Positions 1 through 63,060 of a DNA stretch of 64,000 nt are shown here, one piece after another. Origin of the DNA: a virus (Duplodnaviria; Heunggongvirae; Uroviricota; Caudoviricetes); IMG/VR virus record IMGVR_UViG_2832442593_000001, positions 88,020 through 152,019 of that record; one strand, 5' to 3'. The translations under genes and the position numbers were made by a program. The notes beneath the pieces were generated by a model. The model saw nothing but the letters and a program-made list of their open reading frames with translations. It ran no database searches and was not told the origin of the DNA. Positions within the stretch are counted from its first letter, which is position 1. The number at the start of each line of letters is the position of its first letter.

Positions 1-759
1 GGGGTTCAGACAAAATACGTTGAAGTCCTTATGCAGATAAGGAAGCATCGGAAGCAGGTATTTCAGCCCCAGACTCATGGACTCAGTCCTATACATCTGT
101 GCGATAGAGGAGAAATACATCCTCACATACCTGAAACCGCTCTGCTCCGCTTTCGTAGACTCGCGTCGTGTAATCTCACCCCTGCGAAACAGGTCTTGGT
201 TAAACAACCACTCGCCGCGGTCATTCTGCCAGATGAAGTCTCTCTCTCGGAACGTCCGCAGCATTCCCTGAACAACTGGCGCGGTCAGCTGGAACACTTT
301 TGACAAATAGTTCACGATGTCCGGCGGATACACGTCAGCCGCGATCATCAGGTGCTTGTCAGTAGTAGTCAGGAGCATCATCAGCTTCTGCGCCTCGGTT
401 GGCGTGACGTCATAATAGCTCCCGCCTTCGAGCGGGACGCGCAGCCAGACGAAAGAGCCATAGGCCGGAGTGGCTGTTGAAACATCTCGCTTATAAGGCT
501 TCGCGGCTGGATTGGCTCCGATATCTCTAATGCGTGCTTCAAAGAAGTCCGGGTCGAGATAACGGATATCCTTTGGCTCAAGTTTCACCTTGGGGTTGTA
601 GTACCGCAGTACCGAGGTCGGAATATAAGCCCTCTGTCCATTGCCTTCCAGCGTGAAGGGAACAACGGCGGCGAACTCATGTAAATCAGCCCCGGCGTTG
701 GCTATGTCACGCAGGGTCAGCTCGGCCAACTGCGTTTTTTCTGGCTGGGATTTACCCAT
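1..759 (-). CDS. Hypothetical protein directly downstream of iteron array (possible replication-associated module); 3' end runs off window
   Basis: ATG at 759 with GGGAAG RBS. Translated codon by codon to position 1 with no stop. Absent from supplied ORF track because it has no in-window stop. No family recognised. Confidence 0.45.
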   Translation of the reverse strand, partial: MGKSQPEKTQLAELTLRDIANAGADLHEFAAVVPFTLEGNGQRAYIPTSVLRYYNPKVKLEPKDIRYLDPDFFEARIRDIGANPAAKPYKRDVSTATPAYGSFVWLRVPLEGGSYYDVTPTEAQKLMMLLTTTDKHLMIAADVYPPDIVNYLSKVFQLTAPVVQGMLRTFRERDFIWQNDRGEWLFNQDLFRRGEITRRESTKAEQSGFRYVRMYFSSIAQMYRTESMSLGLKYLLPMLPYLHKDFNVFCLNP

Positions 760-768
760 GTTGCTTCC

Positions 769-895
769 CGTCCTTCCAAATCGAACTCGCGTCCTTCCAA
801 ATCAAACCCGCCGTCCTTCCAAATCAAACTTATCGTCCTTCCAAATCAAACTTATCGTCCTTCCAAATCAAACTCGTCGTCCTTCCAAATCAAAC
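769..895. repeat. Six direct 18-bp iterons CGTCCTTCCAAATC(A/G)AAC at 21-22 bp periodicity (candidate origin iterons)
   Basis: Copies start at 769, 790, 812, 834, 856 and 878, i.e. one per helical turn, immediately upstream of the minus-strand gene starting at 759. Confidence 0.8.
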
Positions 896-897
896 CC

Positions 898-953
898 TAA
901 TCATAAATACACTAATCATAAATACATAATCAAAATACTTAATCATAAATACA
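898..953. repeat. AT-rich repeats TAATCATAAATACA (3 copies + 1 degenerate), DUE-like element adjacent to iterons
   Basis: Direct repeats seen at 898, 913 and 940. Confidence 0.6.
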
Positions 954-1056
954 TAGGCTAAGCTGGGCAGATTTTGAAAATGCCAGCCAGAGAAATGGAG
1001 AAATGGAATCACGCGGAATGAGGCTCACTCAGAATGAGGCTTACTCAAGAGGAGCG

Positions 1057-1437
1057 TCACGCTTCGTCTGAACGATTGGTCGGTATATAAATGCGCGGGG
1101 TAGAGAACTGACATTGGCTGTGTCGGCGAATCAGATGTGCTTCTTCAAGTTCCTTAAATATCTGCAGCGCTTTCTTCTCTCCACAAGAGATGTCGTTCAT
1201 AACATCTTTGAGAGAGTAATAGATGAATGGCTCGCCATCTTCGTCAATCCATTCTGGCCGGCTTTTTGATAGCTGCATTCGGTAGAGCATGAGAGAATAC
1301 AGGATCTTCCCAGCCGGAGAGACAGACTTGAGGTCAGGAGTTACGGGGATAGGGATGAAATCGAATCCGCTACGGCCATCGTAGCTGCGGAACTTTGGGT
1401 TCTTCTATGTCGTGTGGATAGCTGGTCGTTTTGCCAT
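1057..1437 (-). CDS. RepA_N-family replication initiator N-terminal domain homologue with in-frame TAG at 1405-1407 (codon 11); either TAG-suppressed/recoded or a pseudogene (alternative internal start at 1290)
   Basis: Strong RBS GGAGGAGG + ATG at 1437. Translation MAKRPAIHTT*KNPKF...PFIYYSLKDVMNDISCGEKKALQIFKELEEAHLIRR aligns with the 18718 RepA_N protein (YVYFSIDSVMESIGCAKAKAVKLMDTLEDWGLIRR). Confidence 0.5.
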
Positions 1438-2539
1438 CTGAATACCTCCTCCGCGGGGTAATTGGATTTTTTTTGCTTCTATTAACTACTATACAAAAAA
1501 GGCGTTTTTGGGACGCGGAGTTAAAGAAAAAGATGCATAAAGATTGAGAATTCTTTTGTGCATGTTGCTGAATGAAAAATAGCCAGCTGAAGTAGACTCT
1601 TCTGGCTGGCTTAGACCTATGCAGCAGTGCTTAGGTAGTAATACTGAAATAGATAAAGCCGACCATTAGAGACCTTGGCCGGCTGTATTTATGATTGGAT
1701 ACGCCCCTGGGATAGAGCAGGTATGGCGAGGTACGTCAATCATTGAAGAACCATTTTCGTTCTGGCGGCAGAATTGAGCTGTAATCGATTTTGACATGCG
1801 GATGGGAAATTATACCACGAGAATACAAAAAGCCAGTACAGGGCATTCTGAGGCGAATACAGGGCATTGTAGGCAATATGTGGAAATGCATGGAAACTAT
1901 AGGGGTGGGTTTTAGAGATCGCGGCGGCTAATTTATATAGCAGAGAACAATCATAGTAGAGCAAGAGTGTGTAGTGCTACATAGTGCTATAGGCAGTATT
2001 CCCTTCTGGCGGGAGATAAGGAGATGATAAGTTAGATACAGGATTGCATGGCAGCTGTAGACCTGCGTGACAGATGCATGATGGAGCTGCAGTAGAGCTT
2101 CCGTAGAGCTTGTGGCTGGCTATACTCGAGCTGACGGTTACAGCAGATTATAGGAATGCACCTTTTTCGAGTGTTCGGGAAAAGAGAGATGGCGAAAACT
2201 CGGGAACAGCGCACGAAATTGAGGAAACGGGGATTAAAGAGGGGAAAAGGGAGGGGGAGGAGAGCGAAAGTTCGGGGAAAAAGGGGAAAAATATGGGGTA
2301 GAGTGAGATGAGGCAACTACCCTGCCTAAAAATAGGAAAAGAACTGAAAAAGTGTAAAATATGCCCCCTTTGATAGAAAAGAGGCATTTACACCGCTGAA
2401 AAGTGCCGAAACGCTGTTTTATAGTATACTCGAAAAGTCGGTTTTTGAGGCAGGCTGATTTTTTGAGGTGTCTTGACACCTATCTTTACGCCTGAAGTTG
2501 GATATATGAACAGTCACTCATATGTTATTTTCTTAACAT

Positions 2540-3470
2540 AGTGTTAGTGTATCCTGTCTCTGTCGATCGGCAGGACAGAGGGCACGACAGGGGCACGCGG
2601 TGCTGTCTGGGCGCGGTATATGCAGGGCGTGACAGAGGGCGAAAATTTCAAAAAATCGGCGCGCAGCACGACGGGAAAAATCTTTTTTGCGCGTTTTTTC
2701 TGATTTTTTCAAAAAACTTATCCGCGCTTAAAACCTGTATTTTCGCCTGTTTTCGCCTGTTTTGCGAACCCCTACGCGCGCGTGCGTTTTCATTATCTTT
2801 GAAAAAATTGCCCCCCAAATTTTTTTTGAAAAAGGGGGTTGACACTGTACGCACAGAGTGCTATACTGTGAGCACAGTCAAGGAACGGCACCCCGCCGGA
2901 CGCCTTGACAGGGACGGCGCTCACCGTGTAGGGCGCGGGGCGCGCCCCCTATAGCGTGAAGTCCGGACGGCGTCCGGCGTGAAGTTTGACAAGTGAACAG
3001 CGACTTCTCGGCTTGTACCGCTTTCCCTCGATAGAGGGCGGGCGGGTTTCGAGTGCACCGCTTTTCCCTCGATAGAGGGCGGGCGGGCGTTATGCTTGAC
3101 AAGCTGAGAAGAACAGCTGTGAAATACCGCTTTCCGGTCGTGCATAACGGAATTGCACGACTTTCCGCAAGCGCGTTGCGCTTGCGGGCGGGAAAGTGCT
3201 TGCGTTCTGCATATGCGGTTCAATCGTGACAGGTGCACCGCGCAGAGTAGACAAGAACGGGCTTAGCCCCCGCAAGCAAGCTACGTTTAGCGTGTCCGTG
3301 AAAACACGCACCAAAACCGCGCAAGCGGTGGCGGGGTTTGCGGTTATCCAAAACCGCGCAGGCAGTACATAACAGGTTTACCCCCGGGGGGTCCCCTTCA
3401 ATTGACCCCCCGGTGCCAATGCCGCAAGGCAAGTACATATTCACGCAAGGACTTTACATACTGGAGGTTT
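2540..3470 (+). promoter_or_regulatory. Early control region with several TTGACA boxes, GC palindromes and a duplicated ~30-bp element (3010-3040 / 3058-3090: CCGCTTTCCCTCGATAGAGGGCGGGCGGG)
   Basis: No credible ORF. TTGACA at 2839, 2905, 2984 and 3096. Palindromes GGGCGCGGGGCGCGCCCC (2930) and CCCCCGGGGGG (3385). Divergent gene orientation either side. Confidence 0.5.
2839..2867 (+). promoter_or_regulatory. Consensus sigma-A type promoter TTGACA-17-TATACT
   Basis: Perfect -35, 17-nt spacer and near-consensus -10; first plus-strand gene lies downstream. Confidence 0.6.
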
Positions 3471-5520: not shown

Positions 5521-5995
5521 AGCAATCTTTCCATTCAAAATCGTAAACAGAGTTCTTTTCGAGATAATCAGGCTTAGGAAGTTCCATGTTAATATGTTTC
5601 TCGAAAGTCAAGAGATATTTTTTGATAGAAAAATCTCTCCCGGTTAAGAATAAATTCGCTTGGCTCCGCAAGAAAAGTTCCGCAGGACCTTTATGCATAC
5701 GCTCAGCTTGTTTGAGTTTTGCAACTCCTGTGATTGTTTTGTCGTCGATTTGCTGATAAAAAATAATTTTCTGCAACCGCATGACATCACAATGCAAATA
5801 TTTAGACAATTCGACAAGATTGGGATATTTGATTGCTAATTTGAATACTTTTTCGGTGAAAGCGTCATCGTTTTCTACTTTGCAATTATCAAGAAATAAT
5901 TGTAAATAATTACGACTACTTTCGCTTTCACAAGCATTCAATTTTTGGTACACAATAAAATCTATCACATTGTCCAAATCTTCTTTTGTGTACAT
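5519..5995 (-). CDS. Hypothetical protein, low-GC moron on opposite strand
   Basis: ORF track; GAGGTG RBS on minus strand. About 35% GC against ~50% for neighbours. Confidence 0.6.
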   Translation of the reverse strand: MYTKEDLDNVIDFIVYQKLNACESESSRNYLQLFLDNCKVENDDAFTEKVFKLAIKYPNLVELSKYLHCDVMRLQKIIFYQQIDDKTITGVAKLKQAERMHKGPAELFLRSQANLFLTGRDFSIKKYLLTFEKHINMELPKPDYLEKNSVYDFEWKDC

Positions 5996-35143: not shown

Positions 35144-35259
35144 CCCGGTGTAGCTCAATCGGATAGAGCGCGTAATATGTGAGCTGATAAGTTCGCTGAC
35201 AGCAAATTTCTTTTAGATTTGAAATCTCGAGGTTGTCGGTTCGAATCCGGCCTCCGGGC
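35144..35259 (+). ncRNA. tRNA-like RNA with acceptor, D arm and T arm intact but anticodon arm replaced by ~64-nt insert containing CGCTGACAGCAA motif
   Basis: Acceptor CCCGGTG/CTCCGGG, D GCTC-AATCGGATA-GAGC, T GTCGG-TTCGAAT-CCGGC. No complementary anticodon stem. Confidence 0.5.
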
Positions 35260-52068: not shown

Positions 52069-53058
52069 ATGGAAATCAGAGATGTGGTAGAACAAATTGA
52101 TATCGTGGACTACATCTCCCAGTACCTCGATGTAGAGAGGCGAAGCGAGAACGAATACGTTGCGCTGTGTCCCTTCCATGACGAGAATACACCATCCTTC
52201 ACGATTACGCGCTCCAAAGGGTTGTATTACTGCTTCGGCTGCGGAGCTCGCGGCGACGTTGCCGATTTCGAGGTGCTGTACAACCATGTTTCTTTGCGAG
52301 AAGCGGTCAAGCGACTCAAAGCCTACGCCGGAATCACAGAGGGTGTGTCACTACCGTCCACCCATCTGGCGGCTGTACAGGCTCTCAAGAAGTACGCGCC
52401 ACGAAAAGAACAGAAAAATGTGTGTGAGCCACACAAAATCCTAGGGGAAAATGTGATGGAACAGTACGAGTGGCGACCGGAGAAGTTCCAGTCTTGGCTC
52501 GATGAGGGTATCCCTCTCGACCAGATGAAGCGTTTCGGTTACCGGTATGACGCGCTGTCAAACCGCATCGTTCACCCGATTCGATTGCCCGACGGCCAGA
52601 TTTTCAGTATCTGCGGACGCACGCTCGACCCCGATTTTAAGGAGAAAAAACTCCGCAAGTACACCTATCTCGTAAAGCTCGGAGCACTCGATACGCTGTT
52701 CGGGCTTTACGAAAACCGCGAAGCAATCCTCCGGAAGAAAGAGGTCATCCTGTTTGAGGGTGCGAAGTCCGTTCTCAAGGCGGCGGGCTACGGTTTCGAT
52801 AACTGCTGTGCCGTGCTGACCTCACACATCAACCCTTACCAGACCAAGATTCTCCTGCAACTGGGCGTCCGTATTGTCATCGCATTTGACGAGGAGGTTG
52901 ACCCGCGGCAGGATGGAGAAATCAAAAAGCTGAAACGCTTTTGCAGGGTGGATTGGGTTCGTAACCGTGACAACCTGTTGGGCGAAAAGATGGCTCCCGT
53001 AGACAATGGAGCGGAAGTTTGGAATGAATTGTATCAGCGAAGGGAGCGGCTATCATAA
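52069..53058 (+). CDS. DNA primase (DnaG-like: CHC2 zinc finger + TOPRIM)
   Basis: CPFHDENTPSF...YYCFGCGARGDV zinc finger. TOPRIM EVILFEGAKSV. Confidence 0.8.
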   Translation: MEIRDVVEQIDIVDYISQYLDVERRSENEYVALCPFHDENTPSFTITRSKGLYYCFGCGARGDVADFEVLYNHVSLREAVKRLKAYAGITEGVSLPSTHLAAVQALKKYAPRKEQKNVCEPHKILGENVMEQYEWRPEKFQSWLDEGIPLDQMKRFGYRYDALSNRIVHPIRLPDGQIFSICGRTLDPDFKEKKLRKYTYLVKLGALDTLFGLYENREAILRKKEVILFEGAKSVLKAAGYGFDNCCAVLTSHINPYQTKILLQLGVRIVIAFDEEVDPRQDGEIKKLKRFCRVDWVRNRDNLLGEKMAPVDNGAEVWNELYQRRERLS

Positions 53059-56000
53059 TTTTTCAGAACTACCACAAACACACAACCTACAGTAACCCTC
53101 GCGTCAGCGACTCGGTCGTGACCTACGAGGATTACGCCAAGCGTGCCGTCGAGCTCGGACATTCCATTCTGTCCAGCTGCGAGCATGGATGGCAGGGGAG
53201 ATATATCGAGTGCTACGACCTCGCAAAACAGTACGGTCTGAAGTTTCTCTTCGCCGCTGAGGCTTACTGGGTCTGGGATCGTCATGAGGAAGACCGTTCC
53301 AATTGCCATATTTGGATTGGCGCGAAGAATGAAAACGGCCGCGAATGGATTAACGAGGTTCTCAGTCAGGCGAACGAGGATGGTTTCTACTACCAGCCGC
53401 GACTGGATGAAGAGCTTCTCGACCTGCTTCCGGCGGGCGACGTTTGGATTACAACTGCCTGTGTTGCCGGATGGAAGTATCTCGGCGAAGAAGAAGAGCG
53501 ACTCAAGGCTCTTTGGAAGAAGCTGTACGACAAACACGGCGACAACTTCATGTTTGAGGTGCAATACCACCTCTCTGAACGGCAGAAAGAGCTAAACCGT
53601 TACATTCTGAATCTGCGGAAAGAAATTCCCGCGCCGATTATCATGGGCTGCGACAGCCACTACATCGAGGGAAACGGCGCAGAACTCCGCTCCGACTTCC
53701 TCGTTTCTAAGGAAGACCGCAAGGCTTACGATGACGAGGAAGAATGGTTTATGGATTACCCGGATGGCGACACTGCCGTCCGACGCTTCCGCGAGCAGGG
53801 TGTCTTGACAGAAGCTGAGATCACGGAGGCAATCGACCGGACAAACTGTTTCCTCGAAGTAGAGGAGTACGAGTGCGATATTTTCGACGACAGCACTAAA
53901 CTGTTCTCCCTTCATCCGGAGTGGACGCAGGAGCAGAAAGATGCTGAGTATATGCGGCTTGTCCAGCAGGGCTGGGAAGCGTATAAGCCAGAGGTTGACC
54001 CGAGTCTGTATCCGGTGTATGAGCAGGCTATTAAAGAAGAAACCGATACTGTTAAGCAATGCAGAATGAGCGACTACTTCATTGATGACTATTACATCAT
54101 GAAGCGAGGGAAAGAGCTCGGCGGTCACTTGACTACTACTGGTCGTGGCAGTTGTGTTGGATTCTTTACAAACAAGCTGCTCGGCTTTACCGAGGTTGAC
54201 CGAATTGCAGCCAAAGTAAAGATGTACCCCGAACGCTTTATGACTGCAGAACGTATCCTCGAAACGCAGAGTATCCCCGATCTTGACCAGAACGTAGCGG
54301 AGCAGGATATCTTTGCGGAAGGCCAGGCTCAGGTCTGCGGCCGTGATCATGCAGTTCAGATGCTTGCTTACGGCACGCAAAAAGCGTCAGCTGCGTGGAA
54401 GATGTTTGCGAAGTCCCAGAGCATCGACTTTGCTACGGCGAATGAAGTGTCCGCCCAGATCAAGCGATATGAGAACAAGCTCCATACCGTTGATGAGGAA
54501 GAGAAGGACACCATCGACATCATGGACTACATCGACAAACGATTCCATGACGTATACCTTCGCTCGACCGAGTATCAGGGAATCATCACAAGCTGGTCAC
54601 CGGCACCGTGTGCGTTCCTGCTGTATCAGGGCAGTATCCGCCGCAAGATTGGACTTGTGAAGATCAAGGACAAGATTTGCTGTGCGATGGATGGCCATTG
54701 GGCGGAGAAGAATCACTTCCTGAAGAACGACCTGCTCCGCGTTGCTGTGGTTGACCTTATCAATCGAGGCTATCATCGTGCAGGATTGAAAGTTCCTACT
54801 GTGAACGAGCTTCTCGATATGTGCCCACCAGATGACCCGGTATGGGGTATCTATCGTAAAGGCTGTACGCTTGGTATCAATCAGGTCGAGCAGCCGGGAA
54901 CCGCCAGCCGAGTAGGCGTTTACGCGCCAACCAACATTTCCGAGCTTTGCGCGTTCATCGCCGCGATTCGCCCGGGTTTCAAGTCGATGTACAAGACCTT
55001 CGAGAGTAGACAGGATTTCTCGTATGACGTTAAACCGTTCGATGAGCTTCTTCGTACCGATGAGTTGCCGCAGTCGTTCTGTCTGTATCAGGAACAGCAG
55101 ATGGCGGCGCTGAACTTCGCCGGTTTTCCGATGAAGGAATGTTACGCGGCGGTCAAGAATATCGCCAAGAAGCGTAAGGAAAAAGTCCTCGCATATCGCG
55201 AACGATTCATCGACGGATTCTCTAAGAAGCTGATCGAGCAGGAGCATTTGGACGAAAAGACCGCCATTGAAAAGACCGACATGGTCTGGAAGATCATCGA
55301 AGATTCAGCCTCGTATAGCTTCAATGCCTGTGTGTCGGGCGATACAAAAATTAAACGTTCGTCTAAAGGACAGTCCCGGTTTGAACCTACAATTGAGGAA
55401 ATGTTCTTGATTAAGAACGATTTGGAGTATGCGAAACGAACAAATCACTACCATCTGCACAGTAAGTATCTAAAAACGTATGGCTGCGGTTTATCGGTAT
55501 TTGAAGATGGAAGAATTCATCAGAACAATATTGTAGATATCGCCTATGCCGGAGAGCGTCAGACATACCGAATCATGCTTGAGAATGGCGCTTACATTGA
55601 CTGCACAGACAATCATAAGTTCCCAACACCTTCCGGAGAGAAACAACTGAGGGATTTATCGGTCGGAGATATCCTGTACGTCATGGGTTCTTATGAAAAG
55701 AACACAAACAAGTACACCTTCACAAACGGCAATTACAAGTCGAACTTTCCAAACCCCGGGCAGATGGGTTTTCAGAAACACCCCGATGGCCCAAGCGTCG
55801 TTTACGAGAGAGTCCGAGCTGAGAAAAAGAAAGAAAGATGTGCATGCGAAGTATGTGGAAAACCTTATACTGACGACTATCGCTTTGAACTTCATCACAA
55901 AGACTTTGATCGCACACACAATACGGAAGATAACTACACTTGGTGTTGTGTGAGCTGTCATAAGAAGCTCCATTTCGCTCATGGAAGAAACGCTCGGTAC

Positions 56001-57215
56001 GAAAAGGGGATTCCAACACTTCAGTATAAAATTGTCAGCATCGAGCCTAAAGCAATCGAGCGCGTGTATGACGTTGAGATGCTTTCGCCGTATCACAACT
56101 TTGTAACCGATACCGGCATTGTGACGTCGAACAGCCACTCCTATTGTGTTTCTTTGGACTCCCTTTACGGTGCATGGCTCAAACAGCATCATCCTCTCGC
56201 GTTCTATGAAACCTTCATGCGTATCATGGACGAGAAGGGAGACAAGGATAAGCTCGCCGCCGCCAAGGATGAAGCCGAAAGCTACTTTAATATCAAGTTC
56301 CCGCCGTTCAAATTCGGTCAGGATAACCGAAAGGTAACCGCAGACGAAGAGAACAACGCAATCAGCAACGCGCTGACCTCTATCAAGGGATTCAATAAGG
56401 CCGCCGCCGTTGCTCTTTATGAGCTCGGACAGGAGCCGCCGAAGTACCTTTCCGACGTTCTTCTGGCTCTCCGCCCAAAGAGCATTATGAAGTCCACGAC
56501 TGAACCATTGGCTCAAATCAGTTACTTCTCAAGCTACGGCAACGACCGCGAGGTTCTGAACATCATCTCCCTGTGCGAGGAGTTCGGATACGGTGCAAAA
56601 GCATCCATGCCGCGAGAGCGCGTTGATAACAGCTTTCTGGCTGATATTGTACCGAAGTACGCCGACGGTCTCAAGAAGGACGGCCAGCCAGCGACAAGAT
56701 ATACGTTCACGAGCCTGCAGATGAGTACCTTGAAAGACGAAAAAAAGCGGCTCGCGGCCGCTCTTAAAAAGAACCCAACGCCGGAACTGGAAGAACAGCT
56801 TCTCGCTGTCGAGCAGGAAATTGCTGAGGAACTGAAGCGAATCGTCGCTCAGGTGCTCCGCGAATGTGAAGACCGTGTACTGGCGGCAGGTATCGAAGAC
56901 CTTCCGTTCCGCGTGAAGATTGAGAACCAGCAGGAAATTCTCGGGTATGTGGACATCCGGACAGGCAAGGAAGAAGACCGCAGACTTGTTCTCGTGTCGG
57001 ATTTCCGGCCACTTTTGAGTAAAGACACCGGAAAACCGTGGGGTTATGCTTGCTTTACACAGTCACTTGGTTCTGGTAAGCGCATTCGATTGACGCTTCG
57101 ATCGCGGCAGTATGACCAGAATCCAATCAAAAACGGCAGCATCATTTACGTTGACCGATGCACGAAGAACAAATCCGGCTATTGGTATCTTGACCAGTAT
57201 CATCTGGTCGGCTAA
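53055..57215 (+). CDS. dnaE: DNA polymerase III alpha subunit (DnaE-type, PHP domain) containing an in-frame intein; likely non-canonical (AUA/AUU) initiation upstream of the first GTG
   Basis: PHP motif FQNYHKHTTYSNPRV lies upstream of the GTG at 53118, in frame, with AGGGAG RBS 8-11 nt before ATA/ATT at 53055/53058. Extein junction FNA|...|SHSYCVSL matches the conserved GYGFNKSHS motif. Confidence 0.8.
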   Translation: MIFQNYHKHTTYSNPRVSDSVVTYEDYAKRAVELGHSILSSCEHGWQGRYIECYDLAKQYGLKFLFAAEAYWVWDRHEEDRSNCHIWIGAKNENGREWINEVLSQANEDGFYYQPRLDEELLDLLPAGDVWITTACVAGWKYLGEEEERLKALWKKLYDKHGDNFMFEVQYHLSERQKELNRYILNLRKEIPAPIIMGCDSHYIEGNGAELRSDFLVSKEDRKAYDDEEEWFMDYPDGDTAVRRFREQGVLTEAEITEAIDRTNCFLEVEEYECDIFDDSTKLFSLHPEWTQEQKDAEYMRLVQQGWEAYKPEVDPSLYPVYEQAIKEETDTVKQCRMSDYFIDDYYIMKRGKELGGHLTTTGRGSCVGFFTNKLLGFTEVDRIAAKVKMYPERFMTAERILETQSIPDLDQNVAEQDIFAEGQAQVCGRDHAVQMLAYGTQKASAAWKMFAKSQSIDFATANEVSAQIKRYENKLHTVDEEEKDTIDIMDYIDKRFHDVYLRSTEYQGIITSWSPAPCAFLLYQGSIRRKIGLVKIKDKICCAMDGHWAEKNHFLKNDLLRVAVVDLINRGYHRAGLKVPTVNELLDMCPPDDPVWGIYRKGCTLGINQVEQPGTASRVGVYAPTNISELCAFIAAIRPGFKSMYKTFESRQDFSYDVKPFDELLRTDELPQSFCLYQEQQMAALNFAGFPMKECYAAVKNIAKKRKEKVLAYRERFIDGFSKKLIEQEHLDEKTAIEKTDMVWKIIEDSASYSFNACVSGDTKIKRSSKGQSRFEPTIEEMFLIKNDLEYAKRTNHYHLHSKYLKTYGCGLSVFEDGRIHQNNIVDIAYAGERQTYRIMLENGAYIDCTDNHKFPTPSGEKQLRDLSVGDILYVMGSYEKNTNKYTFTNGNYKSNFPNPGQMGFQKHPDGPSVVYERVRAEKKKERCACEVCGKPYTDDYRFELHHKDFDRTHNTEDNYTWCCVSCHKKLHFAHGRNARYEKGIPTLQYKIVSIEPKAIERVYDVEMLSPYHNFVTDTGIVTSNSHSYCVSLDSLYGAWLKQHHPLAFYETFMRIMDEKGDKDKLAAAKDEAESYFNIKFPPFKFGQDNRKVTADEENNAISNALTSIKGFNKAAAVALYELGQEPPKYLSDVLLALRPKSIMKSTTEPLAQISYFSSYGNDREVLNIISLCEEFGYGAKASMPRERVDNSFLADIVPKYADGLKKDGQPATRYTFTSLQMSTLKDEKKRLAAALKKNPTPELEEQLLAVEQEIAEELKRIVAQVLRECEDRVLAAGIEDLPFRVKIENQQEILGYVDIRTGKEEDRRLVLVSDFRPLLSKDTGKPWGYACFTQSLGSGKRIRLTLRSRQYDQNPIKNGSIIYVDRCTKNKSGYWYLDQYHLVG
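55329..56132 (+). other. Intein (268 aa) with embedded HNH endonuclease, inserted in the DnaE FNKSHS motif
   Basis: Begins with Cys (CVSGDTKIKR), ends HNFVTDTGIVTSN followed by Ser. HNH box CEVCGKPY...ELHHKD...NYTWCCVSCHKKLH. Confidence 0.75.
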
Positions 57216-59254: not shown

Positions 59255-60982
59255 ATGACAGTCATCAAACGTGATGGCAGGGAAGTGCCGTTTGATAAGG
59301 ACAAAATTGTTAAGGCAGTGGTGAAGGCGTTCGTAGATAATGATTACTCTACGGACGTCGCACACCCGGTGGCTGAAAAAATTGCAGACGAGGTTGAAGC
59401 AACCAGTAAGAACCTTTCTGTAGAAGAAATTCAGGACACAGTAGAGAAGAAGCTGATGGCCACTAAGTATAAGGATATCGCCAAAGCGTATATCGAGTAC
59501 CGACAGCTTCACAAGATGGCTCGAAGTCAGTATAAGGAGCTAATGCACGCTGTAGCAGAGAAGCTGCAGGCTAAAGATGTCAAGAACCAGAACGCCAATG
59601 TAGACGAGATGAGTTTCGGAGGTCGTGTTGGTGAGGCGAGTGACATCGTAACAAAGCAGTATGCGTTGGAATATCTTGTTTCGCCGCTGTCTCGACGTAA
59701 TCACGAGAACAACGAGATCTACATTCATGACCTGAACAGTTATGCGGTTGGATCACATAATTGCCTCTCGATTCCATTCGACGACCTGTTGAAAAACGGC
59801 TTCAATACCCGCCAGACGGATGTCCGCCCAGCGCAGAGCGTAAATACTGCATTCCAGCTCGTGGCGGTAATCTTCCAGCTCCAGTCCTTGCAGCAGTTCG
59901 GCGGTGTGAGCGCGACACATCTTGACTGGACAATGGTTCCTTATGTGCGGAAGTCGTTCTGGAAGCATTTTAAGAACGGCTTGCATTACGTTCAGGGAGA
60001 ACCGTTCCCAGACGATACTTCATTTGACCCAGAGCTTTCAATCGATGCAGACATCTATAAAGTAGCCGACGATGCGTATGAATACGCTATCGATATGACT
60101 ACTAAGGAATGTTATCAGGCTGTAGAAGGGATGTATCACAACTTGAACACCCTGCAGTCACGCTCCGGCAATCAGCTTCCGTTCACTTCTATCAACTACG
60201 GCACTTGCACGTTGCCAGAAGGCCGGATGGTTACGAAGGCTCTTCTCGATGTGTCTATCAAGGGCATTGGCAAATTGCATCGCACCAGTATTTTCCCATG
60301 CGGCATTTTCCAGTGTATGAAGGGCGTGAATCGCAAGGAAGGCGATCCCAACTACGACCTCTTCCAGCTTGCCCTCAGATCAACCAGCCAGAGACTGTAT
60401 CCGAACTACGCCAATGTAGATTGGTCAGGGAATGCAGGCTACGACATCAATGATCCCAGAACGTACTTTAGCACTATGGGGTGCAGGACGGCAAATGGCT
60501 GGGACATTAACGGATTCGGTCAGTTGAAGGACGGCCGCGGCAATATTTGTCCGGTGACTATCATCATGCCTACTTTGGCGATGGAAGCAAAAGAAAGGGT
60601 AGTTCATGCAAAAGCCCCTGAAGAGGCCATTATTGACAGCTTTATGGACTTGCTGGACACCAAAATCCATGAGGCCAAGGATATGCTTTTGGAACGCTTC
60701 GATTGGATTTGCTCTCAGTCTCCAGAAGCAGCTAAGTTCATGTACGAGAACAACGTAATGGCAGGCTATGTGCCGGAAGAAGGCATTCGTTCTGCTCTGA
60801 AACACGGAACGCTTGCTGTCGGTCAGATTGGTCTGGCTGAAACCTTGCAGATTCTGATTGGTTGCGACCATACCACAACCGCTGGCATGAAACTCGCCAA
60901 GCAAATTGAACAGTTGTTCAAAGACAGATGCGCTGAGTTCAAGGAAGAATATCATTTGAACTTCGGTGTTTATTTTACCCCT
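59255..60982 (+). CDS. nrdD: Anaerobic ribonucleoside-triphosphate reductase NrdD, exon 1 (ATP-cone + catalytic core)
   Basis: N-terminal ATP-cone VIKRDGREVPFDKDKI. Class III RNR core motifs ending ...NFGVYFTP. ORF track gives 59255-60997, where the reading continues into the intron. Confidence 0.75.
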
Positions 60983-62065
60983 GAATGTAACATATAACAT
61001 CTTGCGGGGGCGTGTGTGGTAACACATACTGAAAAAATCGCCTAACTCGGTGAACCTGAAAAGGAATACCGAACTAAGTTCGTTGCTTAAAATTTTTATA
61101 GAAAGGAGGTTATAATATGCCAAATTATATCGAAAAACTGCCTGAAGATGCAGTTCAGGTAAAAAACGCTTTGTGTTGGGTAACCCCTGCCGGGAATCTT
61201 TATGGACAAGAAACACGAACATTATATAACAAAAAATTAGATAAAAAAATTCCGCACAAACATTATGGAGAGTTCTTCCAGTATAACACCACCGTGAATC
61301 GGAGAAATGGTTACGTTTATGCACCCATCAAATACATTAAATCAGATGGGACATACGAAATTCGACGTCGCAGGTTGCACATTGTGATTGCGGAAACATT
61401 GCTTCCGAACCCTAATAAATTTCCTATTGTTGGGCACAAAAACAACATCAAAACAGATATTAGGCTGAGTAATCTGTATTGGACGACAATCTCTGAGAAT
61501 ACAAAAAAAGCGTTCGACGATGGATTGGCCGTAAATGCAAAAGGTTATGATGATTCTCAATCTATCCCTGTCATAATGTTCAACACTTATACCAACGAAG
61601 AGATAGGAAGGTATGGAAGTGCCAGTGAAGCAGTGCGAGAAACAGGAATCCCTAAAAATACAGTTTTGCGCCAATGCCGGTATAAGAAACCTGTTCGTAA
61701 ACCATTCTACTTCCGATTCCAATCAGACCCGTCGGTTGAACCGCCTCAGATTGTTATCCAATACGACTATGAAACAGATCGTGAAATAGGAAGATATTTC
61801 AATGTATAGGAGGCAGCACGTCAAACAGGCGTGTATTCGAAGGTAGTAGACTACGAATGTAAATTAGGACATAAACCTGTCCGCAAGCCTAAAAATGGCA
61901 CATATTTTACGTTCTATCAATCATCAATCTAAAGGCTCTATAAAATTTTAAGCAACGATAAATGCGTGGAGGTCATCGAAATCCGATAAGGTAAAGTAGA
62001 GTAGCGCAAGCGAAAGAGCGAACTCGTATGAAAAATACGATGAAAATATGACCCAAATAAAAATG
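60983..62065 (+). other. Group I intron (~1083 nt) in nrdD with homing-endonuclease ORF looped out
   Basis: Exon 1 ends in U (…CCU). The intron ends in G (…AAAAAUG). Splicing restores the conserved TP-AENLCY motif. A 19-bp long-range pairing GTTGCTTAAAATTTTTATAG (61084) with CTATAAAATTTTAAGCAAC (61935) brackets the endonuclease ORF. Confidence 0.65.
61117..61932 (+). CDS. HNH homing endonuclease with NUMOD1-like repeats; contains in-frame TAG at 61807-61809 (read-through restores a second NUMOD repeat)
   Basis: HNH_3 motif HIVIAETLLPNPNKFPIVGHKNNIKTDIRLSNLYW. Repeat EIGRYGSASEAVRETGI...KKPVRKPFYFRFQS matches the post-TAG EIGRYFNV*EAARQTGV...HKPVRKPKNGTYFTFYQS. Confidence 0.7.
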
Positions 62066-62554
62066 GCAGAAAACTTATGTTACACTGCAATGAAGAAATT
62101 TCAGGCAAAGTACGGAACGATTCCGAACGTATCCGACAAGGATTTCTTCACCAATTCCATTCATGTACCGGTGTGGAGAAAGGTCTCCATTTTCGACAAA
62201 ATCGGTATCGAGTCACAGCTGACCGGCTATTCTTCCGCAGGCTGTATCACTTATGTAGAACTGGAATCTACTTGTAAGAACAATATTTCGGCTCTCGAGA
62301 CCGTCGTTAATTACGCGATGGATATGGACATCCCATACTTCGCGGTGAATGTTCCAAACGACCAGTGTATGAACTGCGGCTATTGCGACGAAATCAACGA
62401 CACCTGTCCGCAGTGCGGCAGCAAGGACATCAAACGCCTGCGTCGAGTAACCGGCTATCTTACAAACGACTACAAGACCGCATTCAACAAGGGTAAACAG
62501 CAGGAAGTTGAAATGCGAGTAAAACACGACATGGAGGACAAACATTGTATTTAA
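62066..62554 (+). CDS. nrdD: NrdD exon 2 (C-terminal Zn ribbon and glycyl-radical domain)
   Basis: AENLCYTAMKKFQAKYG... Zn ribbon CMNCGYC...CPQCGS. Glycyl radical motif RRVTGYL. Confidence 0.75.
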   Translation, partial: AENLCYTAMKKFQAKYGTIPNVSDKDFFTNSIHVPVWRKVSIFDKIGIESQLTGYSSAGCITYVELESTCKNNISALETVVNYAMDMDIPYFAVNVPNDQCMNCGYCDEINDTCPQCGSKDIKRLRRVTGYLTNDYKTAFNKGKQQEVEMRVKHDMEDKHCI

Positions 62555-63060
62555 CCGTAGCAGAATTTGACACCGTGAGCTTTCCACAGTTCACGGCAGA
62601 CGTAAAAAAATGCAACCCGCTCATCTCAGAGGGCTGCATCGAAGATATGTGGCGCGACCTCGTTTTCCCTGATCGCGCGACCGAAGGCAGTGCAGGCTAC
62701 GACTTTCGCGTGCCGTATGATATCATCCTTGAACCGGGCGAGTCGGCGCTGATCCCGACCGGTATGCGCTGCCAGATTGAGGAAGGCTGGGTGCTGATGC
62801 TGTTCCCGCGTTCCAGCATGGGCTTCAAGTATCGCATGCAACTTGATAATGGCACAGGTATCGTGGACGGGGACTACATTTTCGCCGAGAACGAAGGCCA
62901 CATCATGGCAAAGATCACGAACGACAGCCGCGAAGGCAAGACAATGCATCTGCGAGCGGGTGACCGATTCATGCAGGGCGTGTTCGTTCCTTACGGCGTC
63001 ACGGTTGATGACGAACCAAGAGGGAAGAGAACCGGCGGCCTCGGCTCCACTGGAGCGTAA
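62545..63060 (+). CDS. dut: dUTPase (trimeric dUTP pyrophosphatase)
   Basis: dUTPase motifs AGYDFRV, RSSMG and GIVDGDY. GGAGGA RBS before the TTG at 62545. Confidence 0.75.
   Translation: MYLTVAEFDTVSFPQFTADVKKCNPLISEGCIEDMWRDLVFPDRATEGSAGYDFRVPYDIILEPGESALIPTGMRCQIEEGWVLMLFPRSSMGFKYRMQLDNGTGIVDGDYIFAENEGHIMAKITNDSREGKTMHLRAGDRFMQGVFVPYGVTVDDEPRGKRTGGLGSTGA

Follow-up and report, generated by a model that had tools for sequence, protein, structure and literature searches.

Several phage introns of the IA type have their open reading frame (ORF) looped out from a peripheral helix, e.g., the intron of the td gene of T4 (I-TevI), with an ORF located in P6a, those of the DNA polymerase genes of SPO1 and SP82 (I-HmuI/II) and that of Twort nrdE (I-TwoI), the ORFs of the SPO1 and Twort introns coding for HNH enzymes (PMC2988022, PMC3653736). 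All of them occupy other host genes and other sites than the intron described here, which resembles td in that its ORF likewise lies in the loop of P6. With respect to the host gene, the intron of T4 nrdD (sunY, I-TevII) is more similar, sharing both the same gene of phage nucleotide metabolism and the same RNA class. An identical nrdD site is occupied in the Enterococcus phages EF1 and EF5 (GenBank MF001358 and MF001361), where a search of phage records with blastn showed nrdD to be split at the same codon (YSTP-AESLCY) by a homologous ORF. The endonucleases share 74% nucleotide identity over ~650 nt, and the ORF of EF1 is annotated as 'HNH homing endonuclease' with the addition 'Phage intron'. 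A literature search for this particular intron in Enterococcus phages found no description. The intron family is already annotated in EF1, and its site in nrdD is new with respect to T4. Finally, the idea of a stop codon inside an intron endonuclease has a precedent in the Agate phages, which possess a group I intron endonuclease, an early gene, with in-frame stop codons and a phage suppressor tRNA, and in which these stops are proposed to delay the production of the endonuclease (Borges et al., bioRxiv 10.1101/2021.08.26.457843).

The window, i.e., the whole stretch of 64,000 nucleotides that was analysed, contains on its + strand an nrdD gene that is interrupted between positions 60982 and 60983 and resumes between positions 62065 and 62066. 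The ORF list of this strand comprises two NrdD-like ORFs (59255-60997 and 62048-62554) separated by a 230-aa ORF (61117-61809). Exon 1 (59255-60982, + strand) encodes residues 1-576, which comprise the ATP-cone and the greater part of the catalytic barrel, and ends with ...UACCCCU at the 5' splice site. Exon 2 (62066-62554, + strand) encodes residues 577-738, among them the cysteines that bind zinc and the RRVTGYL loop of the glycyl radical. As the first-pass annotation had claimed, the two parts rejoin precisely: joined in frame, they give a 738-aa NrdD reading ...NFGVYFTP-AENLCYTAMKKF... (junction motif ...GVYFTP-AENLCYTAM...), with the insertion point between the codons of Pro576 and Ala577. 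The alignment with intron-less NrdD that it had proposed as a check bears out this reading, the joined protein matching the PDB chains 8p23 (E = 5e-122), 9d3x and 1h78 of T4 from end to end, ungapped at the junction, where the counterparts are ...laTPAEgls... in 8p23 and ...ysTPsEslt... in 9d3x. The terminal bases are also those it had announced, U for the 5' exon (CCCCU) and G for the intron (...AAAAUG, ending at 62065). The second NrdD-like ORF begins with an ATG (62048) located within the 3' strand of P7 (62048-62053), so that its first residues, MTQIKM, are intron sequence and do not belong to NrdD. No terminator-like site was found on the + strand between the exons. Among seven members of the lineage, the variable sites of exon 1 comprise 139 synonymous and 44 non-synonymous ones, and the nrdD exons are intact and under purifying selection.

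The region 60983-62065 (1083 nt, + strand) is read here, with a probability of about 0.9, as a mobile IA2-type group I intron that separates the Pro576 codon of nrdD from that of Ala577 and carries an HNH/NUMOD1 endonuclease in the loop of P6. At its 5' end, the P1 helix (60978-61010, + strand) is formed between the exon sequence CCCCU (60978-60982) and the guide sequence GGGGG of the intron (61006-61010), the pair next to the splice site being a U.G wobble, and P10 is built by the preceding guide nucleotides UGC (61003-61005, + strand) and the first bases GCA of exon 2. P2 (61012-61029, + strand) is a hairpin of 7 bp capped by a GUAA tetraloop. The 5' strand of P3, UCGC (61038-61041, + strand), pairs with GCGA (62018-62021) and builds the pseudoknot with P7. 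By sequence reading, this helix has 4 bp in the window as compared with 6 bp in the relatives and in T4. P4 (UCGGU/ACCGA) and P5 (CCU-GAAA-AGG) together occupy positions 61047-61072 on the + strand, with A-rich J4/5 and J5/4 segments.

The 5' strand of P6 (61080-61102, + strand) faces its 3' strand (61937-61958, + strand), which was delineated from the inverted repeat and from covariation, and the endonuclease ORF fills the loop. The first-pass annotation was right in describing a long-range helix that brackets the ORF, though not in its length of 19 bp: the pairing is perfect over 17 bp (61080-61096 with 61942-61958) and, by reading, reaches 22 bp with one bulged U. The 3' half of the core (61971-62053, + strand) comprises the 5' strand of P7, GGUCAU (61971-61976), the P7.1 hairpin (61983-61991), the P7.2 region (61996-62017), the 3' strand of P3, the P8 hairpin (62025-62039), J8/7, and the 3' strand of P7, AUGACC. 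A minimum-free-energy fold of the core, in which the ORF was replaced by GAAA, recovered P1, P2, P4, P5, P6 and P8 unaided.

The strongest argument in favour of this structure comes from covariation among ten distinct introns, i.e., that of the window and nine others at the same NrdD site, the helix strands of which were aligned with no gaps. In 40 pairs from seven helices (P1, P2, P3, P4, P6, P7 and P8), all 392 of 392 cells are standard pairs and both-side (compensatory) changes occur at 29 of the 40 pairs, figures that lean towards the structure insofar as the alignment was segmented by hand, trimming of P6 included, and fitted to it. In a shuffle control, none of 500 shuffles reached any of the five measures, and sliding the partners by 1-3 columns lowered the pairing to 34-50%. 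Covariation affects nearly all positions of P2, P6 and P8, with compensatory changes at 7/7 pairs of P2 and covariation at 8/8 basal pairs of P6. P3 occurs as UCGC/GCGA, CUGC/GCAG, CCGC/GCGG and UGGC/GCCA. P1 occurs as CCCCU/GGGGG, CUCCU/GGGAG and CGCCU/GGGCG, so that position -4 covaries (C-G, U-A, G-C), and the U.G wobble at the splice site is invariant in all ten introns. In P7, the GGUCAU/AUGACC of the window differs from the GACUAU/AUAGUC of all its relatives by three changes, all compensatory. P10 keeps its three pairs in every intron, UGY/GCA being replaced by UAU/AUA where the 3' exon starts with AUA. P7.1 also covaries by sequence reading (CC/GG, CU/AG, UCU/AGA).

The core aligns with that of T4 sunY over AAAAUCUGCC (J2/3-P3), UAAAACGGG (J3/4-P4), CCGUUGCUAAAU (P4'), UAAAUG (J6/7), GACUAU (P7, with AUAGUC as P7'), a P7.1/P7.2 block ending in GAAA..GGCAG (P3'), a short P8, and GAAGAUAUAGUC (J8/7-P7'). 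The 41 nt at positions 61977-62017, which hold the P7.1 hairpin and a conserved, GNRA-capped P7.2, align to the same region of sunY. The identification of the insert as a group I intron, put forward in the first-pass annotation, is thus supported by the covariation and by the similarity to the sunY core, and its subgroup is IA (IA2-like), because the P7.1/P7.2 insertion is present and the core aligns with sunY. Of the P1-P9 core initially expected, P1 to P8 and in addition P10 are found; there is no P9 hairpin, the distance between P7' and the 3' splice site being just 12 nt in the window. This P9-less form is common to most members of the intron family, whereas sunY has a P9 hairpin. The sunY core is active even after truncation of its 3' domain.

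A comparison with the Rfam group I model RF00028, also proposed at the outset as a check, gave no match, neither on the window at the gathering threshold nor on positions 60900-62150 at E <= 10. This miss is attributed to the ORF of 816 nt that fills P6. The same model gives 105 bits for T4 sunY, 74 bits for an ORF-less intron located elsewhere in the nrdD of a relative, and 54 bits for a locus with the P7.2 motif. Two other kinds of insertion were discarded. An intein does not agree with the stop codons present in the NrdD frame, which reads ECNI followed by a stop straight after the junction, and no match to an intein family was found. A group II intron was dropped, the sole sizeable ORF on the gene strand being the HNH/NUMOD1 one, with no match to a reverse-transcriptase family.

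The analogy with the T4 sunY intron, suggested in the first-pass annotation, holds for the gene, the RNA class and the core but neither for the site nor for the location of the ORF. The sunY site corresponds to residue ~293-296 of the window NrdD, as compared with 576/577 for the window intron, and an insertion at the same site was rejected since T4 nrdD is continuous there (YSTP-AENLCY). In sunY, the ORF comes after the core and its product is an enzyme of the GIY-YIG type, whereas the window intron harbours an HNH ORF in the P6 loop, in agreement with the earlier statement that the two endonucleases are different. EF1 and EF5 share P1, P2, P3, P7, P7.1, P7.2 and P8 with the window intron. 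EF1 differs by its P9 hairpin, a reduced P4-P5, no obvious P6 bracketing the ORF, and an endonuclease devoid of any internal stop. In addition, EF1 is a lytic phage of at least 142 kb (partial-genome record), whereas the window phage is a prophage. The locus adds a well-supported IA2 intron family at a new nrdD site, in a minimal version with P9 absent and the ORF in P6.

According to the known chemistry of the family, the intron would be transcribed together with nrdD and would then adopt the P1-P8 fold, including the pseudoknot of P3 with P7 as well as P7.1 and P7.2, which are specific to IA introns. The guide (61003-61010) would align the 5' exon through P1, with its U.G wobble, and the 3' exon through P10, and two guanosine-dependent transesterifications would excise the intron to give the mRNA of the 738-aa NrdD, with ...UACCCCU-GCAGAAAA... 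as the predicted spliced junction. The endonuclease presumably cuts or nicks intron-less nrdD at a conserved site reading ...TAYACNCCT-GCAGAAAAC..., and repair would copy the intron into the cleaved allele.

To examine the distribution of the intron, a search was made with GTAGAGTAGCGNAAGCGAAAGAGC, a motif of 24 nt conserved in both the window and EF1, and yielded 15 IMG/VR loci together with 2 genome contigs. According to tblastn, an insert occurs between NrdD residues 576 and 577 in loci L003-L007, L009, L011, L014, L016, L017 and L019, and introns homologous to that of the window were recognized at this same site in EF1, seven IMG/VR contigs and one MAG. Several relatives contain further introns at NrdD residues 167, 217, 410, 619 and 708, and a blastn search of phage records showed the nrdD of the Thomasclavelia phages TR-TP1 and TR-TP2 to be split at other places. 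Out of 2924 NrdD matches in phages, 2906 have no interruption at 576/577. The site is likewise uninterrupted in TR-TP2, which offers an empty site reading GGTGTTTATTATACACCT-GCAGAAAACCTATGC. The closest prophage relative (L022) was also considered as an intron-less allele and proved uninformative, its nrdD being a different allele with 23-27% identity.

Diversity was compared among seven copies of the same intron (the window, L011, L017, L118, L021, L023 and L024). The proportion of variable sites is 1.75% for the intron as compared with 10.6% for exon 1 and 6.0% for exon 2, so that the diversity of the intron is 3-6 times below that of its exons. Over its 267 nt, the RNA core displays 2 variable sites, and at one of them a G.U pair of P2 becomes A-U. 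Such a low diversity is the pattern that would be expected from a recent spread between diverged alleles, and homing driven by the endonuclease would fit an intron far less diverse than the flanking exons. Indirect support for homing also comes from the polymorphism of the site, which contains the intron in some nrdD genes and is empty in others. In this respect, the intron family offers clear population evidence of recent homing in prophages of gut Firmicutes.

The endonuclease gene (61117-61932, + strand; 816 nt) is preceded by a strong Shine-Dalgarno sequence of its own, GGAGG (61105-61109), 7 nt upstream of its ATG. The ORF starting at 61117 stops at a TAG (61807-61809), after which the frame stays open for 40 more codons, up to a TAA (61930-61932) located 4 nt before the 3' strand of P6. 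The product would count 230 aa if ended at the TAG and 271 aa if read through. The assignment to the HNH/NUMOD endonucleases with an internal TAG, already made in the first-pass annotation, agrees with a match to PHROG 59 'HNH endonuclease' (E = 1.2e-22) and with a Pfam NUMOD1 match at residues 213-239, which spans the TAG (23.2 bits, above the 22.8 cut-off). Pfam HNH_3 scores 23.7 bits at residues 86-129, below its cut-off of 24.8. Another NUMOD1-like repeat, the first of two, is seen by eye at residues ~160-200, and the motif VGHKNN...NLYW...SEN is conserved in all endonuclease homologues. A search of PDB sequences with the endonuclease found no match at E <= 1. Upstream of the TAG, 14 synonymous and 2 non-synonymous variable sites occur among the seven copies, which shows strong purifying selection on the endonuclease.

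At the position of the TAG, the residue is Y, Q, A or G in full-length homologues (L004, L005, L009 and EF1) and W in L006, which is interrupted elsewhere. Like the read-through frame of the window, the full-length homologues end a few nt before the 3' strand of P6. Other homologues are shorter: those of L007, L016 and L019 stop naturally after the first repeat, and in L014 a TAG terminates the ORF slightly beyond this repeat. The earlier view that the endonuclease itself requires amber read-through is correct as to the in-frame TAG and goes too far as to the requirement, the 230-aa product keeping the HNH domain and one NUMOD1-like repeat. Because homologues with a single repeat occur naturally (L007, L016 and L019), this shorter enzyme may be active.

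A possible decoder of the TAG is encoded in the same window. A phage tRNA with the anticodon CUA (24570-24663, + strand) has its CCA end encoded in the gene. Its variable arm is long, position 73 is a G, and A1 faces C72 in a mismatch. This tRNA is conserved in six related phage contigs. Both G73 and the class II arm suggest a Ser-like tRNA, and a search for a relative with a sense anticodon returned just the same six CUA copies. Termination in the window relies on TAA in 76, TGA in 39 and TAG in 3 of 118 ORFs, the three TAG-ended ones being the endonuclease and two small doubtful ORFs, and none of the 53 called genes of L026/L027 ends with TAG. When TAG was read as sense, no other real gene was merged in the 64-kb window, nor in the 49 kb of late genes (from terminase to tail) of the contig IMGVR_UViG_3300045988_140941, which is 98-99% identical to the window. 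The endonuclease therefore contains the sole in-frame TAG found in ~113 kb of this phage lineage, a survey that stops before the last ~8 kb of the contig and a few kb beyond the nrdD end of the window. Genome-wide recoding of TAG was rejected on these grounds. The phage uses the standard code, avoids TAG as a terminator and encodes a suppressor tRNA, which represents a candidate decoder of the TAG of the endonuclease. Read-through of this codon is plausible because the phage encodes tRNA(CUA), and its chances are estimated as roughly even. It would most likely be performed by the tRNA(CUA) of the prophage, to restore the ancestral 271-aa form with two repeats, whereas termination at the TAG would yield the 230-aa enzyme with one DNA-binding repeat.

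The explanation that competes most seriously with read-through accepts the intron as real and regards the TAG as a plain stop, resulting either from a fixed nonsense mutation or from a natural shortening, with a 230-aa one-repeat enzyme, a relic of 40 codons behind it and an unrelated tRNA(CUA). The odds of this explanation approach one in two. It agrees with the short homologues mentioned above and with the variability of the residue aligned to the TAG (Y, Q, W, A, G), and the single TAG in ~113 kb leaves the tRNA(CUA) without a demonstrated client. Moreover, the presence of tRNA(CUA) in a contig does not strictly go together with that of the TAG-bearing endonuclease: five related contigs possess the tRNA without the nrdD intron, and the contig of L017 possesses the TAG-bearing endonuclease with no exact match to two tRNA(CUA) probes. 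The segment located downstream of the TAG argues in the other direction. Over these 120 nt, 1 variable site is observed as compared with 11.3 expected for neutral sequence (from the synonymous rate upstream; P = 1.5e-4) and 2.9 expected for coding sequence, which suggests that the tail is still constrained, although the local genealogy or constraints on the RNA could also account for the deficit. This segment still matches NUMOD1, and its frame ends where the full-length homologues end, 4 nt before the 3' strand of P6. Once the tRNA(CUA) of this genome is expressed, it is difficult to see how read-through could be avoided altogether. The TAG is kept in 7/7 copies of the intron, and a search of metagenome and viral contigs for a sense codon in its place returned TAG copies only.

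A more elaborate scenario, proposed tentatively and rather improbable as a whole, considers a temperate phage with the standard code, purged of TAG terminators, that would use a class-II, probably serine-type, amber-suppressor tRNA on one gene among those read, the intron endonuclease. Synthesis of the full-length nuclease with two repeats would be confined to the time of expression of the phage tRNA array, presumably the lytic phase, and the lysogen would contain the short form or none. If correct, this scenario would show stop-codon recoding at the earliest stage that can be observed, limited to one gene, and would provide a DNA-cutting enzyme with a built-in safety switch. The situation differs from that of the Agate phages, in which TGA is read as Trp in the frame of a genome-wide recoding, the window phage having a single TAG and otherwise the standard code. 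The amber codon associated with a phage tRNA(CUA) is the only part of the locus with some novelty, and provides a small case, accessible to testing, of the way in which phages may start to recode a stop codon.

It is highly improbable that the insert is a decayed, non-splicing relic of an intron left in an nrdD pseudogene of a prophage. The P3 helix reduced to 4 bp, the lack of P9 and the stop codon in the endonuclease ORF would agree with such a decay, but the exons are intact with their excess of synonymous over non-synonymous sites, the two variable sites of the 267-nt core include one that changes a P2 pair from G.U to A-U, the three differences of P7 from the relatives are all compensatory, and the P9-less form is shared by most members of the family. 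That splicing does not occur at all, a free-standing endonuclease gene having split nrdD so that NrdD is made as two polypeptides, is hardly credible in spite of the two NrdD fragments annotated by gene callers and of the precedent of Aeromonas phage Aeh1, whose NrdA works as two polypeptides (PMC3653736), considering that the ORF is flanked by a conserved and covarying group I core in which P1 and P10 define the exact junction, that neither of the ATGs upstream of exon 2 is preceded by a Shine-Dalgarno sequence and one of them lies within P7, and that the split would break the conserved TPAE motif.

With the insert read as a group I intron, the nrdD locus, which gene callers report as pieces of 580 aa, 230 aa and ~160 aa, should be annotated as one gene and not as two fragments with a stray HNH ORF, and the same holds for the hundreds of assemblies that contain the same prophage. 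The phage itself is an SPbeta-like prophage of a gut bacterium, because its left side encodes homologues of YonJ and YonG together with a terminase, and the window corresponds to its right arm. Identical genes occur in bacterial contigs of >390 kb, where they adjoin a large serine recombinase and the host guaA gene.

The variability of the intron was compared with that of its host gene over window positions 59255-62554, using the six other copies of the intron in related phage and prophage loci (L011, L017, L021, L023, L024 and L118). The variability amounts to 1.75% in the intron versus 10.6% and 6.0% in the flanking nrdD exons, i.e., 3-6 times lower in the intron, and a dip in diversity also occurs in the final ~130 nt of nrdD exon 1. 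Taken together, the low diversity of the intron and the dip in exon 1 represent a population signature of recent homing accompanied by co-conversion.

The nrdD gene is an intron hot spot in this phage group. In related phages (L005, L009, L014 and L016), nrdD contains up to three separate inserts per gene, distributed among sites at residues 167, 217, 410, 577, 619 and 708. The insert located at residue 217 in L005, where insert regions include positions 5602-5931, is devoid of any ORF and matches the Rfam group I intron model RF00028 with a score of 74 bits. Another RF00028-positive group I intron (54 bits), found at positions 1338-1686 of L010 and also in L018, shares the P7.2 motif of the nrdD intron but occurs in a different genomic context, and a promoter-like TTGACA...TATAAT element is found within its aligned region. 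Downstream of nrdD in the window, a dUTPase gene (62545-63060) directly follows, and no gene for the NrdG activase occurs among the genes adjacent to nrdD, while a radical-SAM gene comes next downstream of a divergent nrdD allele in the relative L022.

A different homologue of the endonuclease, encoded by the nrdD intron of L006, possesses its own single in-frame TAG in an otherwise intact ORF, at a position occupied by Trp (N-W-V) in the other homologues compared. No tRNA gene was found in the 12.6 kb of sequence available for L006. In the window, a tRNA with a CUA anticodon (24570-24663) belongs to a phage tRNA array, with tRNA-Gly(CCC), tRNA-Met and tRNA-Lys as neighbours, and is characterized by G73, an A1.C72 mismatch, a long variable arm and an encoded CCA. 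TAG is very rare as a terminator in the prophage (3 of 118 ORFs in the window, none of the 53 genes called in relatives), and no in-frame TAG other than that of the endonuclease was found in the whole window.

The wider layout was read from positions 1-3400 of the window and from the sequences extending beyond both window ends in L021-L027. The prophage is SPbeta-like, and the window forms its right arm: terminase, HU protein and homologues of YonG and YonJ are located to the left of the window, and a 549-aa serine recombinase and the host guaA lie just past its right end. Apart from a RepA_N gene on the minus strand (1057-1290), the coding potential of positions 1-3400 is low. A NUMOD3 endonuclease ORF interrupts the terminase gene in one of the relatives, L025.

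The DNA polymerase III alpha-like gene (53028-57215; 1395 codons) probably harbours a mini-intein, a candidate to which a Pfam Intein_splicing match points at residues 826-1033 (32 bits, under the cut-off of 35.8); the corresponding protein of L024 is shorter (1238 aa). Two Rfam tRNA matches of 116 nt (35144-35259) and 126 nt (35907-36032), both missed by ARAGORN under default settings, contain insertions of 22 and 54 nt, respectively, in its intron mode, and the motif AAGTTCGCTGACAGCAA is common to both insertions. These matches may be interrupted tRNA genes. Two further tRNA-like matches, at 37991-38059 and 38166-38252, were detected by Rfam only.
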